Below are positions 1 to 4,786 of a stretch of DNA of 4,786 nt, piece after piece. The stretch lies in IMG/VR virus record IMGVR_UViG_2565956721_000003, one strand, 5' to 3'. The position numbers were made by a program, and so were the translations under genes. Numbering within the stretch: the stretch's first letter is position 1; every line of letters begins with the position of its first letter. The notes below the pieces were generated by a model, which saw nothing but the letters and a program-made list of their open reading frames with translations, was not told the DNA's origin and did not search any database. Origin of the DNA: a virus (taxonomy: Duplodnaviria; Heunggongvirae; Uroviricota; Caudoviricetes).

Positions 1-555
1 AAGCAGAAAAAGCTTATTATGCTTCCATCGGAAACGATGATCTGGCAGCCTGAGTTCACAGATAAAACACTCTCCAGGAAACCCGGGGCGGTTCATTAGA
101 TGCTTTTTGCTGACTAGCATATTTACAGCATCACGAAGCGGAGTCCTGTCATCAACAGATGTTTTCTTCCGTGCATTTGCTGCCTCTCCCTTTGTCCAGT
201 AGTCATGCAGCACAGTAAAGCATTCTTCCTGGTACTGAATCAGTTTATCGCGGATGTCAGCACGAACTTTCTCAGGGTTGATGCTGAACAGCCATCCATT
301 TAACTTCTTCAAAGGAAGGCAGAGTAGCTTACGAAGCTTACCATCAGCGGCAACCATGTTCATATGAACACAGTTGAATTTGCTAATCTGCTTCATGAGT
401 TTTGTTTGCTGCGTTGACCAGCTCATTCCGAGGTTTTCAACGATTGGCTTCATCGCAACATATGCAACTCCGGCAGCCATGGCGGTGATAATTTGCTGAC
501 CGTTGAATGGCACGTAAGAGGTGTTCACTGCTTCTAAAATTGCTATACTATTCAT
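1..555 (-). CDS. ant: Phage antirepressor Ant (AntA-type N-terminal domain); 5' portion only, gene continues past the window start
   Basis: Minus-strand frame is open from the ATG at 555-553 to position 1 (185 codons, no stop), translated by hand as [60 protein letters not shown]...[20 protein letters not shown] lies about 10 nt upstream of the ATG. The N-terminus matches my recollection of P22 Ant and AntA-domain antirepressors, and the gene sits downstream of an arc-like gene as in P22 immI. Not in the ORF track because it runs off the window edge. Confidence 0.8.
541..549 (+). promoter_or_regulatory. Candidate extended -10 promoter (TGcTATACT) firing antisense to the ant start; possible Psar analogue
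   Basis: Plus strand 541-549 reads TGCTATACT, a TGn + TATAAT-like hexamer with one mismatch. No good -35 was found. A start about 7 nt downstream would fall at about 556, opposite the ant ribosome-binding site. Confidence 0.3.
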
Positions 556-637
556 GTTGGTTTTTCTCCACGGATTTACCGACAACCGAAGCCCTGACTG
601 TTCCAGCAGTTGGGGCTTCACTGTTTTGATTTCTTTG
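556..637 (+). ncRNA. Candidate small antisense RNA (sar-like) complementary to the ant ribosome-binding site
   Basis: A candidate promoter at 541-549 and a plus-strand hairpin with T-run at 588-637 bracket a roughly 70-80 nt transcript antisense to the ant Shine-Dalgarno and start codon. In phage P22 a 68-69 nt antisense sar RNA from the arc-ant intercistronic region is established. Inference from sequence signals only. Confidence 0.35.
588..637 (+). terminator. Plus-strand intrinsic terminator-like hairpin followed by a T-rich tract
   Basis: GAAGCCC (588-594) pairs with GGGCTTC (613-619), with possible inner CTG/CAG pairs, followed by ACTGTTTTGATTTCTTTG (620-637). On the minus strand the same hairpin is not followed by a T-run, so the signal is orientation-specific. 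Confidence 0.4.
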
Positions 638-787
638 CCGCATCAAGCATCACTTCTGAAAACGTGCGCTTGCCACTGAATACTCTTTCTCTTCTCAATT
701 TTTCGTTCGTGCCAAATGATTCGCCATGAACAAAATTTGGTCTTAAAATGGTAATCGCAATCTCTTTGACTACTGCATCCAAGCGAA

Positions 788-940
788 TCACACCGTTACC
801 CCCTCTCTCTTCAGGCTGTCTATCAGGCGCTTGATAACCTCTGAGTTAAACGACCTGCACTCTTCCTTTGCCCTGCTACCGATAGCATCCTTTAACGACT
901 GCGGCATCCTTACCAAAATCTTACTTATTTCTTTCTCCAT
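788..940 (-). CDS. arc: Arc-like ribbon-helix-helix repressor (50 aa)
   Basis: Within track ORF 788..976 the likely start is the internal ATG at 940-938, preceded by GGAGGG with 5-nt spacing. Product MEKEISKILVRMPQSLKDAIGSRAKEECRSFNSEVIKRLIDSLKREGVTV has the size and the 'xxRSxNSE' core of P22 Arc (NGRSVNSE in P22) and lies immediately upstream of ant. Confidence 0.8.
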   Translation of the reverse strand: MEKEISKILVRMPQSLKDAIGSRAKEECRSFNSEVIKRLIDSLKREGVTV

Positions 941-976
941 GTTACCCTCCACGCAAACAACTCTTTTCGAATACAA

Positions 977-1041
977 AAGATAGCAAAGTGAGTATATCTA
1001 GTCAAAATTTTTTTGCATACACTTTGCTATCAAATTGAATA
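977..1041. promoter_or_regulatory. Divergent arc/ant (Pant-like) and mnt (Pmnt-like) promoter region with a perfect 12-bp inverted repeat, candidate operators
   Basis: Minus strand: TTGACT (complement of 1000-1005), 17-bp spacer, TATCTT (complement of 977-982), a good sigma70 match about 35 nt upstream of arc. Plus strand: weaker TTTGCA/TTGCAT (1012-1018) and TTGAAT (1035-1040) upstream of mnt. GATAGCAAAGTG (979-990) and CACTTTGCTATC (1020-1031) are exact reverse complements 29 bp apart; one half overlaps the Pant -10 and the other lies in the Pmnt spacer. Confidence 0.5.
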
Positions 1042-1054
1042 CCAAAGGTGTTAT

Positions 1055-1303
1055 ATGGCAAAGGGTGTGTCAATTTCTCCAACTACGGTAAGAATCCCTG
1101 AATCTTTACGCGAGGCTCTTGCTGTCAGAGCATCAAAAAATGGTCGCTCTGTTAACTCCGAGATCGTCATGATTTTGCAAGCCGCGATTGATGAAGATAG
1201 GTCGCCAAAGTCAGTTGAGTCATTTGCTCAGCAAGAAGCTGATAAATTCAAAGAGGCGCTACTTGAGACGCTAAAGACCATGTATGCTAAGGATGAAAAA
1301 TAA
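1055..1303 (+). CDS. mnt: Mnt-like ribbon-helix-helix repressor (82 aa)
   Basis: Within track ORF 1013..1303 the likely start is the ATG at 1055, with AAGGTG 4-5 nt upstream. Product MAKGVSISPTTVRIPESLREALAVRASKNGRSVNSEIVMILQAAIDEDRSPKSVESFAQQEADKFKEALLETLKTMYAKDEK matches P22 Mnt in length (82 aa), in the NGRSxNSE motif and in the C-terminal TLKxxYxK segment. It is divergent from arc as in P22 immI. Confidence 0.8.
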   Translation: MAKGVSISPTTVRIPESLREALAVRASKNGRSVNSEIVMILQAAIDEDRSPKSVESFAQQEADKFKEALLETLKTMYAKDEK

Positions 1304-1837
1304 TGCTGCACACAATTCATTTCTTATGCCCTGTTAACACTGCCACTGTTGGGCAACTTCAGAACCACTGTCTCACCGCATTATCTCAAGGCGCAACTGA
1401 ATTAAATATCCATATATCAAGTCAGGGAGGGGAAACTGCTTGGCTTTACTGCGTATAACTTTCTTAAGTCACTCCCTGTTACCGTTAGAACTCACAACAT
1501 AAGCAATGTTGAATCCATAGCTAATATCGTTTTCCTGGCTGGCTCAGAACGTTTCGCAAACCCATTATCAAGATTCCTGTTACATCCTCTATTATGGTGC
1601 TTTGCCTCCCCAGCCGCCGACCATGCCAGATTGAGAGAGTACGGGAAATGCCTCGATAACGATCTTGATCGCTTCGTTGAGACGTTCAATATCGACATCG
1701 GAACCCATATTAGGTGGGCATCCCTGATAGCAGACTCGACCATTTTGGATGCTAACAAGGCTCTTGAGCATGGCATAATTAATTCCATAAAAACTGCAAG
1801 GCTGGCATCCAATCAGGCAAACTGGTGGGTTGTTTGA
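1303..1837 (+). pseudogene. ClpP-like (S14-type) serine protease gene, start overlapping the mnt stop (TAATG), interrupted by a single-nucleotide frameshift near 1440-1441
   Basis: Frame 1 (1303-1458) gives MLHTIHFLCPVNTATVGQLQNHCLTALSQGATELNIHISSQGGETAWLYCV*. Frame 2 (open 1406-1837, includes track ORF 1631..1837) gives ...GFTAYNFLKSLPVTVRTHNISNVESIANIVFLAGSERFANPLSRFLLHPLLW...DANKALEHGIINSIKT.... Joined, this aligns with remembered E. coli ClpP across [47 protein letters not shown] and APEAVEYGLVDSI, with Ser/His/Asp at the expected triad positions. Removing one T from GCTTGGC (about 1439-1443) restores ...GGETAGFTAY.... Confidence 0.6.
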
Positions 1838-1862
1838 TGGGTAAATCATGATTACTCCTTAT

Positions 1863-1887
1863 AAAAAACCCACCTGACGGTGGGTTT
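1863..1887. terminator. Bidirectional intrinsic terminator between the convergent protease gene and the toxin operon
   Basis: AAAAAA (1863-1868), CCCACC (1869-1874), loop TGAC, GGTGGG (1879-1884), TTT (1885-1887). On the minus strand the stem is followed by six T, so termination is strongest for the minus-strand operon ending at 1886; on the plus strand only three T follow. Confidence 0.6.
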
Positions 1888-2335
1888 AGTCAAACATAGT
1901 GTTTCTAAAGTCTCTCGCATACCCTGCTAACACTCTCATTCTATTATGATTGTTAGCAGACATGTGAGCTACAGGATGAAAAAGAGCAATCAATGAATAC
2001 CTGTTCTCATCAAAAAGATTTTGTGCATAAACGAGAGCGGTATTGGATGTTTTATGCCACTGCAACTTTTGCGGTGTGCTGATATCTGTGCCATTTTTTA
2101 TTGGCTCAAATTTATTTTCACCAATTGCTAAATGAAGGTGCATAAGGCCTGCATCTTCAATATCAGGAGGTCGATGATAAGAGGTGTCTCTGCCAAAATA
2201 GCTGGGCAACGTTCCCGTAGACTTGTAGATGATAAAATCATCTACAAGTGTTTGTTTTAAATCAGGAAACTCAACAAAAACCGGGGAGAAAAAATAGTCA
2301 AAACTATCCTGATTATATTCCACGGTTACTTGCAT
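1886..2335 (-). CDS. YafO-family toxin (ribosome-dependent mRNA interferase family), 149 aa
   Basis: Track ORF 1886..2335. FIIYKSTGTLPSYFGRDTSYHRP, LMHLHLAIGENKFEP and ALVYAQNLFDENRYSLIALFHPVAHMSANNHNRMRVLAGYARDFR align with E. coli YafO as I recall it (FISYKRDGVLPDIFGRDALYDDS, VAHIHLANENNPFP, HLVYCQGAFDEQAWLLIAILKPEPHKLARDNNQMHKIGKMAEAFR). The ATG at 2335 is 8 nt after the upstream gene's stop, with GAGG overlapping that stop. Confidence 0.8.
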   Translation of the reverse strand: MQVTVEYNQDSFDYFFSPVFVEFPDLKQTLVDDFIIYKSTGTLPSYFGRDTSYHRPPDIEDAGLMHLHLAIGENKFEPIKNGTDISTPQKLQWHKTSNTALVYAQNLFDENRYSLIALFHPVAHMSANNHNRMRVLAGYARDFRNTMFD

Positions 2336-2343
2336 GTTTTACC

Positions 2344-2910
2344 TCAGTGGAAGTTACCAGAGTGAAACACACGAGTCCCGTGCTCAGCAAGCGCACGCAA
2401 ACCAGCCATATCTACGGAACTATCAAAAACAACCGGAACACATGAGCGTTGTTTAATAAGACTATTCAGGTTGGTTACGGCAGATCTGGCATCAGCAACA
2501 ACGATATAGATATCTCTTGCGATCTCTTTAAAATCAGCAGAAGCTTCTTTGAATACCGATTTCATTGCCCCTTCAAGTCCTCTCAATTGATGCTCTATCA
2601 ATCGAGACTTTTCTGGTTCAATGATAGACAACACATTGTCTACATTCTCATCGGTAGCGTTTGCAAGAACACGATAAGCGTATTTCAGCATTCGAGACAA
2701 TTCTTTAATCGAAGACACCGCCTCATGAAGCTCATCATTAGCCCGTTCACTGCTGAATGAGGATTGATGGTAAGCGTGCTGAACGTTATCAGTAACAACC
2801 ACCTCACAACTGAACGCAGAAGCTTGCTGTAATAGCAAACCTATTGCGACTCCAGCTTTGGCAGCGTTCAAGCTAAACATTTCATCAATCCCATTAGTCT
2901 CATTGCTCAT
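2344..2910 (-). CDS. Hypothetical 188-aa protein encoded immediately upstream of, and coupled to, the YafO-like toxin gene; candidate atypical antitoxin or partner
   Basis: Track ORF 2344..2940; preferred start is the ATG at 2910-2908, preceded by AAGGAGG with 5-nt spacing (the track's Met at 2940 is a TTG with no RBS). Product MSNETNGIDEMFSLNAAKAGVAIGLLLQQ...GLRALAEHGTRVFHSGNFH has no recognisable RHH or HTH N-terminus and no family I can name. It is roughly twice the size of the known YafO partner YafN (97 aa). Confidence 0.7.
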   Translation of the reverse strand: MSNETNGIDEMFSLNAAKAGVAIGLLLQQASAFSCEVVVTDNVQHAYHQSSFSSERANDELHEAVSSIKELSRMLKYAYRVLANATDENVDNVLSIIEPEKSRLIEHQLRGLEGAMKSVFKEASADFKEIARDIYIVVADARSAVTNLNSLIKQRSCVPVVFDSSVDMAGLRALAEHGTRVFHSGNFH

Positions 2911-2977
2911 ACAAACCTCCTTCTTATCGGAGATTATCAATAGCTATGCATCCATTGAATACACGCTATGCGCAATA

Positions 2978-3006
2978 AGTTTACGTCACGTGATATCATT
3001 ATGCAA
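2978..3006 (-). promoter_or_regulatory. Candidate sigma70 promoter for the 188-aa/YafO-like operon, with palindromic candidate operator in the spacer
   Basis: Minus strand: TTGCAT (complement of 3001-3006), 17-bp spacer, TAAACT (complement of 2978-2983), about 60 nt upstream of the ATG at 2910. The spacer contains overlapping 8-bp palindromes TCACGTGA (2986-2993) and TGATATCA (2991-2998). Confidence 0.35.
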
Positions 3007-3085
3007 CCACCGTTCTATCACCGACTAACTTTACTCCCACTCCTATACATCATCTGGTATCCTGCGCAAAACTAAGGAGGTTGGT

Positions 3086-3436
3086 GTGAATGCTCAGTCT
3101 GTCATCATGGTTTTCCTTGGGCTGATTGTCGCAAAACTATATCCAGACTGGTGGAAAGGGGCATTAGCTACTGTCGCCATCTATTTGCTTTTATCCATCG
3201 TTAAGCGATCACTCGCTGAGACCGTAAATCAAGCAAAACGTTTCTCATTTAAGAGTTTAATAAACTATGTTACTGGGCTTATTTTTTGCCTTTCAATTCT
3301 GATCGCTTCGGCTTTTTTGCCCGTATCAATAGCTAATTTTTTTGGCGCACCATATGAGGTAGGTTATCTATTCTCTGTTTCCTGTCTTGCCATTGCTCTT
3401 CTTTACCTGTGGACGAGATCAAAGAATAAAAATTAG
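3086..3436 (+). CDS. Small integral membrane protein (116 aa, about four predicted TM helices); candidate superinfection-exclusion or abortive-infection effector
   Basis: Track ORF 3086..3436 with GTG start and AAGGAGG (3074-3080) at 5-nt spacing. Four hydrophobic stretches (SVIMVFLGLIVAKLY, GALATVAIYLLLSIV, LINYVTGLIFCLSILIASAFL, YLFSVSCLAIALLYLW) and a basic C-terminus RSKNKN. It occupies the position between mnt and gene 16 where P22 carries sieA; I could not confirm sequence similarity to SieA from memory. Confidence 0.65.
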   Translation: MNAQSVIMVFLGLIVAKLYPDWWKGALATVAIYLLLSIVKRSLAETVNQAKRFSFKSLINYVTGLIFCLSILIASAFLPVSIANFFGAPYEVGYLFSVSCLAIALLYLWTRSKNKN

Positions 3437-3453
3437 CCATCCGTGGCTGCCAG

Positions 3454-4691
3454 TTATTGAGCTTCTTTTTGTGATGCCTGTGCGACTCTGGTGAGCGATT
3501 GTGTGACCGTACTGATCGCTCTGTCATATGCTGTGCTACCTTTTGGCGTATTTGCCAGACGTAACAAGGCATTTCGTATAACAGGGCTTTCGTATGCCTT
3601 CGCAGCTCCTCCTACGACACCAGCAGCAGGAACAACAAACGCAGCCGTTTTTAGCATCCCCGCTAATACTGCTGCGTTTATGATGCCACCACCAACTAAC
3701 AATCCATAAAGCTGCTGACCATTTAAGTTTTGAACGTTCGCTTTTGCCGCGTGTCTTGTATCGTTGAGGTATTTAATAACGCCGTCCAGTTCCTTTCCAT
3801 GTACGCCTTTAAAGAAAGTTGCTGATTGCTTCCTGTTCCGGTGTAACGCATTAATAAACTTTTCAACACTAATATTTCCAGACGGATCAGTCGCCTTATC
3901 TACAGCATTCTGAACTATGGCTGCTCGTGCGTTTTGCCTACCATTGTCATCCAGAAGCCTGTAAAGCTGAGAACGTTCTGATGGGTTTTGGCTAAAAACG
4001 AGTTTTGTTACATCCTCAGGTGTAGCCTTGCCGCTGGCTATTGCCTTTTGAACGCGCGTTCTTCCCATCATGTCATTGAATCTAGCCCATGAGCGATCAA
4101 CCCTAGACATATTGGCAGCTTCTTCTGAGCCTAGTTTTTGGGATACTGCTTTTTTCATATCCGCTGTATATGCCTTGTAGACAATATCGCTGGCTTTCTG
4201 GAGCGTGTCTTTATCAACAGTCTCGTTTGAATTCATGAACCGCTTTCGAAGGTCAGTTCTGTTTTCTCTCGCCAGACGCAGGTCATTGGGTCCGCTGGTG
4301 ATATCGTCTTTAAATTGCTGCAAGACTTTTACCGCGGCTCTATCCTGAGATTTGCCCGGGCGGCTTAACACGGCAATCTGATTGTCGATAGCTTTTACCG
4401 TGTTTGAGAGATCGACAGGGGTATCCCCCATAGCGTCAATTATGCGGTTATATCGCTTTCCTGCTGCCTCAATGAATTTTTGTTGCCCTTTAGTCGCAGA
4501 TTCATAAAGCTGTTTATCAGAAATGCCACCCAGACCATCGCTAAATGTTCTGACTAAATTTTCTCGTGCTTGTTGTTGATTCAGCCGATTCTTACCGGTT
4601 CCAAAAAAAGGAACTCTTTCGCCTAATGTCTGAGCCTGACTCTGCATAAAGGTTTTATCTTTCAGCGTGTCACTGGTCATTAACGGCAGGT
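3454..4691 (-). CDS. Phage late protein, probable DNA ejection/injection protein (P22 gp16-like by position), 3' portion; 5' end interrupted by an IS element
   Basis: Track ORF 3454..4680 (408 aa). The frame stays open upstream of the ATG at 4680 through the IS boundary and stops only at 4717-4719 inside IS sequence, so the native N-terminus is missing. A glycine-rich hydrophobic segment (GLLVGGGIINAAVLAGMLKTAAFVVPAAGVVGGAAKA) sits near the C-terminus. Assignment to gp16 rests on synteny with P22 (gene 16 lies next to the sieA/mnt side of immI) and on the size deficit (about 410 of roughly 600 aa). Confidence 0.5.
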
Positions 4692-4786
4692 TGAACCGCC
4701 CCGGGAATCCTGGAGACTAAACTTCCTGAGAAAGAGGTAAACAGGATGACTAAAAATACTCGTTTTTCCCCCGAAGTCCGTCAACG
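4692..4786 (+). mobile_element. IS3-family insertion sequence (IS629/IS1203-like), left terminal inverted repeat and start of orfA; continues beyond window
   Basis: TGAACCGCCCCGGGAATCCTGGAGACTAAAC... from 4692 matches the IS3-family left end as I recall it (TGA terminus), followed by AGAGG and the ATG at 4746. Confidence 0.65.
4746..4786 (+). CDS. IS3-family transposase OrfA, N-terminal 13 codons only
   Basis: Translation MTKNTRFSPEVRQ(R) matches the OrfA N-terminus of IS629/IS1203-type elements from memory. AGAGG lies upstream of the ATG. Confidence 0.65.
   Translation, partial: MTKNTRFSPEVRQ

Follow-up and report, generated by a model that had tools for sequence, protein, structure and literature searches.

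The product of P22 gene 16 is an essential protein. Length variation of the AAGACTC tract is expected for neuO, a phase-variable O-acetyltransferase gene, and the insertion sequence IS629 has IS1203 and IS3411 as close relatives. CUS-3 is a neuO-carrying, P22-like prophage that resides at argW-dsdC (PMC9659370; PMC3046976), and CUS-3-like phages are prone to decay (PMC9659370). The IS3 element is reported to create adjacent deletions of various lengths (PMC8860574). We analyzed a 4,786-nt stretch of viral DNA (the window), for which a preliminary description had proposed that an IS3-family insertion interrupts an ejection-protein gene and that the prophage is probably defective.

The window is the exact reverse complement of positions 9895-14680 of scaffold KI538783.1 (L005), with N gaps on both sides, and its 408-aa protein is recorded as ESP31706.1 from E. 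coli HVH 178 (4-3189163). It constitutes an entire short-read contig, each end of which runs 95 nt into an IS repeat. An exact-sequence look-up of the 408-aa product returned 24 contigs, three of them long: a 478-kb contig (L004), the scaffold itself (L005) and the complete chromosome OZ038983.1 (L006). We mapped these three against the prophage of E. coli S88 (locus L012), which is placed between tRNA-Arg/intS and torI/dsdC (argW-dsdC). The tailspike remnant carries the domains End_beta_propel, End_tail_spike and Peptidase_S74, and next to int lies an acyltransferase gene containing a long run of AAGACTC repeats. The number of AAGACTC units in this neuO tract is 14+13 with a 14-nt interruption in L005 (17370-17572), 20 in L004 (17288), 41 in L006 (17288) and 34 in S88, on the opposite strand (L012 4399). 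From the argW/intS...dsdC position, the endosialidase domains and the AAGACTC tract, we conclude that this is a CUS-3-like, P22-like prophage of K1 E. coli HVH 178; both the repeat unit and the integration site agree with published accounts of CUS-3 (PMC3046976; PMC9659370). The repressor gene also varies among the loci, its product having 216 aa with HTH and Peptidase_S24 domains in L005 (4806-5456) and only 119 aa, with Peptidase_S24 alone, in L004 (3698-4057) and L006 (5277-5636); the short calls suggest a further lesion in the L004 and L006 genomes.

The features of the window are as follows; gene coordinates within 96-3453 were transferred by alignment from the S88 RefSeq annotation, and Pfam labels for these genes were present in L004-L009.

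1-95, plus strand: right end of IS629 copy 2 (nt 1216-1310), an exact match to the IS at offset 1215
96-555, minus strand: ant remnant (S88 annotation)
618-791, minus strand: small ORF (S88 annotation)
788-940, minus strand: Arc-family gene (S88 annotation)
1055-1303, plus strand: Arc-family gene (S88 annotation)
1303-~1837, plus strand: ClpP-like gene with a 2-nt deletion (S88 annotation)
1886-2335, minus strand: YafO-family toxin (S88 annotation)
2344-2910, minus strand: upstream partner ORF of 188 aa, without family assignment
3107-3436, plus strand: small membrane-protein ORF (S88 annotation)
3454-4691, minus strand: 3' remnant of a P22 gene-16-family DNA ejection gene, codons 259-670 plus stop
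4689-4692: deletion junction between the gp16 remnant and the IS629 left end, with flank GGT and a shared T at 4692
4692-4786, plus strand: left end of IS629 copy 1 (nt 1-95 of 1310), an exact match to the L004 element

A complete 1310-bp IS extracted from the sister assembly L004 served as the reference element for IS comparisons. Two Stx-phage records, LC567824.1 and LC567828.1, carry features annotated 'insertion sequence: IS3 family IS629' to which it is 99.5% identical across its whole length (100% coverage), and its nt 1-95 are reproduced exactly at the window's right edge, where an IS629/IS1203-type left end of the IS3 family had been recognized in the preliminary description. We also considered whether the sequence beyond the ejection-gene remnant might not be an IS at all; it is IS629, a common insertion sequence. 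What had to be corrected is its start, which was put at 4681 and lies 11 nt later, at 4692, the first base of TGAACCGCCCCGGG, with which the left terminal inverted repeat of copy 1 begins. The preceding 11 nt, TAACGGCAGGT (4681-4691), still match the phage DNA of E. coli S88 exactly and represent ejection-gene codons 259-262. The T at 4692 is common to phage and IS, and the junction is therefore ambiguous by 1 nt.

Within copy 1, the orfA start codon lies at 4746, and MTKNTRFSPEVRQ is the plus-strand translation of 4746-4784; only the first 13 orfA codons fall inside the window, which stops within the element. Nucleotides 4692-4786 match 5,791 E. coli RefSeq records (≥80% coverage, E 1e-41), so that this is no chance match, and 100% identical copies in E. 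coli RefSeq carry 'IS3 family transposase' annotations. The terminal inverted repeats of the 1310-bp element follow the TG...CA pattern and are imperfect, TGAACCGCCCCGGGAATCCTGGAGAC and TGAACCGCCCCGGGTTTCCTGGAGAG (reverse complement) agreeing at 23 of the first 25 positions. In L004 and L006, orfA encodes a 108-aa product with HTH_Tnp_1, and orfB a 295-aa product with HTH_21/rve/rve_3. Translation of the 1310-bp IS placed orfB in a frame different from that of orfA and overlapping its end, and the RefSeq annotation of equivalent IS copies includes a 'programmed frameshift' and a pseudoknot feature.

The long assemblies extend past copy 1, and there the S88 late genes are missing. The gp16/IS junction is identical in L004, L005 and L006, and also in short contigs from ENA and Logan samples. 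The far IS end, by contrast with this fixed junction, abuts S88 L012 31561 (ninB) in L004, ~32784 (dnaB) in L005 and 33320 (dnaB) in L006, leaving missing intervals of 18.7 kb, 19.9 kb and 20.4 kb, respectively. Both flanks are colinear with S88 in all three, order and orientation being kept. A 3-bp target-site duplication at copy 1 was not found in L004, L005 or L006: the far-end flank triplets, read in the orientation of the loci, are CAG, ATG and AGC, respectively, and at the gp16 end, in that same orientation (opposite to the window's strand), the flank is ACC, corresponding to GGT in the window. Extending the sequence, as the preliminary description had advised, thus recovered the other IS end, and neither a target-site duplication nor the rest of the gene; the ejection gene is indeed cut, but the implied simple insertion gives way to ninB or dnaB beyond the IS, with 18.7-20.4 kb gone. 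These data indicate, with a probability of about 0.9, that the copy 1 junction is one edge of an IS629-associated deletion of ~20 kb and not a simple insertion.

The missing interval wholly contains 29 annotated S88 features; for HVH 178 it corresponds to S88 2503882-2523783 (L012 12883-32784). By the S88 annotation, the losses comprise the nin genes, Q, holin/lysozyme/Rz, both terminase subunits, portal, scaffold, coat, the gp4/gp10-type head-completion genes, the other two ejection genes and the first 258 codons of gene 16. The injection function, whose loss had been proposed, is accordingly only part of what is gone, with lysis, terminase, portal and coat lost alongside it. In L005 both IS copies contain assembly gaps, and the IS-dnaB link there rests on scaffolding. 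The late-gene loss in HVH 178 holds for the prophage locus, and the block could in principle have relocated elsewhere in the genome.

How might such an arrangement have arisen? We propose that an IS629 inserted into gene 16 of a CUS-3-like prophage and that DNA beside its right end would then have been lost stepwise, with the junction between its left end and gp16 staying fixed. The loss may have proceeded either by adjacent deletions driven by the transposase or through recombination with additional IS629 copies, and would have joined ejection-gene codon 258/259 to the early region (dnaB or ninB). Both the order of these events and the deletion mechanism are read back from just three end states.

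The second of these routes, taken in its pure form, is RecA-dependent recombination between the gp16 IS629 and a same-orientation IS629 independently inserted in ninB or dnaB, with no adjacent deletion involved, and we regard it as quite possible, if short of probable. IS629 is multicopy in these genomes and strikes the prophage repeatedly, and a single IS without a duplication is also what remains when two direct IS repeats recombine. Insertion of IS629 into IS629 is seen in L006, where a full IS629 is followed by an extra 87 bp (IS629 nt 1-87) and then by the gp16 remnant (9815-9989); this indicates that one IS629 was inserted into another and the rest then lost, and the 87-bp fragment implies a more complex history in at least one lineage. 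Recombination, however, would require every lineage to have acquired its own new insertion within the same 1.8 kb, whereas nested end points with the other side fixed (31561 < 32784 < 33320) are what IS-adjacent deletion, as described for IS3 (PMC8860574), classically produces. An inversion in place of a deletion was also considered, and was rejected, since the S88 arrangement is preserved on both flanks, in order as in orientation, and the two IS copies point the same way.

Far less credible is a simple IS629 insertion with the 5' part of gene 16 and a 3-bp duplication just past the IS, in which injection alone would have been lost. The window taken by itself, stopping 95 nt into the IS, is compatible with such an event, and a near-simple insertion does occur elsewhere in the gene 16 homolog of APEC E12053, with 6 bp lost. 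Yet ninB or dnaB lies beyond the IS, with no duplication, in 3/3 spanning assemblies, which in L004 and L006 contradicts the simple insertion outright, and the right-hand junction that it predicts is absent at this site from every complete RefSeq genome, which makes this reading very improbable. In 5,426 complete RefSeq E. coli genomes, megablast of the gp16/IS junction found none that carries it; the right-hand junction of copy 1 predicted under simple insertion was likewise present in 0/5,426 at this site, and the ancestral simple-insertion allele in 0/5,426, no genome having either junction here. The lineage with these junctions is therefore uncommon among finished genomes. An exact-match scan for the 41-nt junction in GTDB species-representative genomes also returned none, as is expected at one genome per species.

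A synthetic query for the simple-insertion junction gave a single match at ≥80%, H101, which proved to be the APEC E12053 insertion ~590 bp away. This genome (L013, NZ_CP126928.1) has an independent IS629 in the ejection gene at S88 L012 12288/12295. We had wanted a 3-bp duplication at this ejection-gene IS629 as a positive control, and there is none. The L013 locus contains three IS629 copies (3821-5130, 1-1050 and 8568-9877), the ejection-gene copy plus two more, of which one adjoins the ClpP-like gene and another joins a gp7-like ejection gene to a truncated dsdA. In strain 504239 (L003, NZ_CP025859.1; 4192-6623), an IS629 interrupts the middle ejection gene in another P22-like prophage, located in the same dsdX/dsdA chromosomal region, the prophage remnant abutting a truncated dsdX. 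This prophage family has been struck by IS629 repeatedly (the HVH 178 lineage, APEC E12053 and strain 504239).

An assembly artefact, in which the IS ends would be repeat-induced contig ends or chimeric joins and the prophage would really be intact, draws on the nature of the window, a short-read contig ending 95 nt into a multicopy repeat on both sides, and on L005, which joins the window to its neighbors across N gaps only. The switch between phage and IS nevertheless falls exactly at the IS terminal nucleotides, as a biological junction would, and the junctions recur in samples that were sequenced independently, a gap-free complete chromosome and a 478-kb contig among them. We consider an artefact extremely improbable, and retain the IS629-associated deletion as the reading of the copy 1 junction.

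What the deletion left of the ejection gene was compared with its intact S88 counterpart, a gene of 2013 nt (670 aa) annotated 'P22-gp16 family phage DNA ejection protein'. The remnant is without the 5' 774 nt (258 codons). The mechanical ORF at 3454-4680 (minus strand, 408 aa) begins at the internal Met263 of the S88 protein, and 408/408 of its residues are identical to S88 residues 263-670; nucleotide identity with S88 continues upstream of ATG 4680 to 4691 (codon 259) and ends at the IS. Beyond ATG 4680 the minus-strand frame stays open for 12 codons, crosses the junction and meets a stop inside the IS, and this 12-codon stretch contains no ATG, GTG or TTG. A search for a complete gene with its start near 4680 therefore found only an internal methionine.

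The ejection-gene call made at first from the window alone is borne out, and the P22 gene-16 type assigned, by profile, homology and orthology. The window ORF covers positions 243-667 of the 668-position PHROG 770 'DNA transfer protein' (E 1.6e-124), and the intact S88 protein covers it end to end (2-667 of 668). The S88 ortholog is 30% identical to P22 gene 16 (NC_002371.2; tblastn, E 5e-40) and aligns end to end with homologs of phages N7, SPN9CC and APSE. Pfam and NCBIfam scans (E ≤ 0.01) gave no match for either the window ORF or the intact S88 protein, PF26808 being listed as 'faint' in precomputed Pfam matches and absent from the scan at that threshold, and a PDB sequence search with the ejection protein matched no solved structure. 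The 90%-identity cluster of the 3454-4680 product contains many differently truncated or partial versions, 258-467 aa long, from both E. coli and Salmonella, a pattern that fits a gene often interrupted or broken at contig ends.

No Shine-Dalgarno-like motif is visible in CTGCCGTTA, just before ATG 4680, and a promoter/terminator scan of 4400-4786 found no site; from these two observations we would expect no product from the 408-aa ORF. That it could be a complete, naturally short ejection gene with the IS merely upstream is suggested by the ATG at 4680, by a frame intact to its stop and by gene callers, which annotate 3454-4680 as a 408-aa protein, but this is next to inconceivable given the 100% identity to S88 residues 263-670 and on upstream to 4691, the alignment of PHROG 770 and of the functional phages N7, SPN9CC and APSE over ~670 residues, and the absence of a Shine-Dalgarno-like motif in the preceding sequence and of a promoter-like site in 4400-4786. 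The ORF is the leftover of a 670-aa gene, without a start of its own: a remnant and not a functional member of the family.

The left edge of the window is also an IS629 end, one that had been absent from the preliminary description. In this second copy, positions 51-53 hold the orfB stop and the right inverted repeat runs to 95; the orientation is that of copy 1. In L004, L005 and L006 it sits between S88 L012 8284 (ant) and 6026 (tailspike gene), replacing 2.26 kb that comprised the 3' part of ant and the 5' part of the tailspike gene. The tailspike portion lost is the head-binding 5' part of the endosialidase tailspike, and what remains is a 405-aa endosialidase with its N-terminal part removed. 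There is no duplication at copy 2, its flanks being TAA and ATC. We conclude that this second, same-orientation IS629 deleted 3' ant and the 5' endosialidase tailspike gene.

Between the two IS copies lies a retained segment of 4.6 kb. Window 96-4691 equals S88 L012 8284-12881 with a sole difference, a 2-nt deletion at about window position 1441 (S88 L012 9629-9630; ACTGCT[GC]TGGC), which confirms that the ClpP-like protease gene is frameshifted, as had been noted from the window. The deletion is present in the window (L005) and in L008; it is absent from L004, L006, L007, L009 and L010, all of which have a called CLP_protease product of 178 aa, and on that distribution the frameshift is a later, lineage-specific lesion. 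The YafO-family toxin and the 188-aa ORF may be a toxin-antitoxin pair kept intact between the IS copies. The product of 3107-3436 is small and hydrophobic, with no family match on record, and its gene lies directly downstream of the ejection gene, the position at which P22 carries sieA.

The 4.6-kb module thus contains Arc-family regulators, a ClpP-like gene, a YafO-type toxin with its partner and a small membrane protein. Both of its junctions are identical in every assembly found, and the DNA beyond the right end of copy 1 is eroding. We found no signal of selection in the retained 4.6 kb, the 2-nt difference being the only one from S88, and the earlier proposal that the cargo may be retained to benefit the host is therefore conjectural. 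It is a speculative and improbable idea that IS-anchored deletion trims the prophage around selected modules (the 4.6-kb block and neuO), or that the block is composite-transposon-like. Any phenotype of the region would be expected to come from this retained cargo and not from phage production.

Together, these results show that the prophage was rightly called defective, and that the call was an understatement: a late-gene block of ~20 kb is missing at the locus, in addition to the 2.26-kb ant/tailspike deletion. Judged by the genes that remain, the prophage would be unable to make particles, to lyse or to inject. The CUS-3-like prophage of HVH 178 and its relatives can thus be described as a dead remnant that still has neuO and an immunity/toxin module. 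It shows cleanly, in a natural setting, how nested IS629-associated deletions anchored at one end erode a prophage, and it cautions that, where a short-read contig stops in an IS, what lies concealed there may be a deletion and not an insertion. Its practical value is limited. The IS, the type of prophage and the kind of decay are known, publications having already described both how CUS-3-like prophages decay and how IS629 acts in prophages.

Compared with its closest described relatives, the locus differs chiefly in what has been removed. Relative to named IS629, the element has the same size, ends and ORF layout and shows no difference in itself; relative to a fresh IS629 insertion, the copy at the window site is without the expected target-site duplication, and flanking deletion has occurred. 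The S88 gene, like P22 gene 16, is the last of three ejection genes and stands directly before an immI-like region, which in S88 consists of Arc-family genes and ant, with the tailspike gene beyond; unlike P22 gene 16, the window copy misses its first 258 codons. As in IS3-family adjacent deletions, one end is fixed, the other lies progressively farther away, the IS is kept and there is no duplication, although recombination between two IS copies would give an identical product here. The argW-dsdC site, the P22-like gene order, the endosialidase-type tailspike and the neuO AAGACTC tract are all shared with CUS-3; what sets the window lineage apart from published CUS-3-like prophages is its specific IS629-bounded deletions, of ~20 kb and 2.26 kb.
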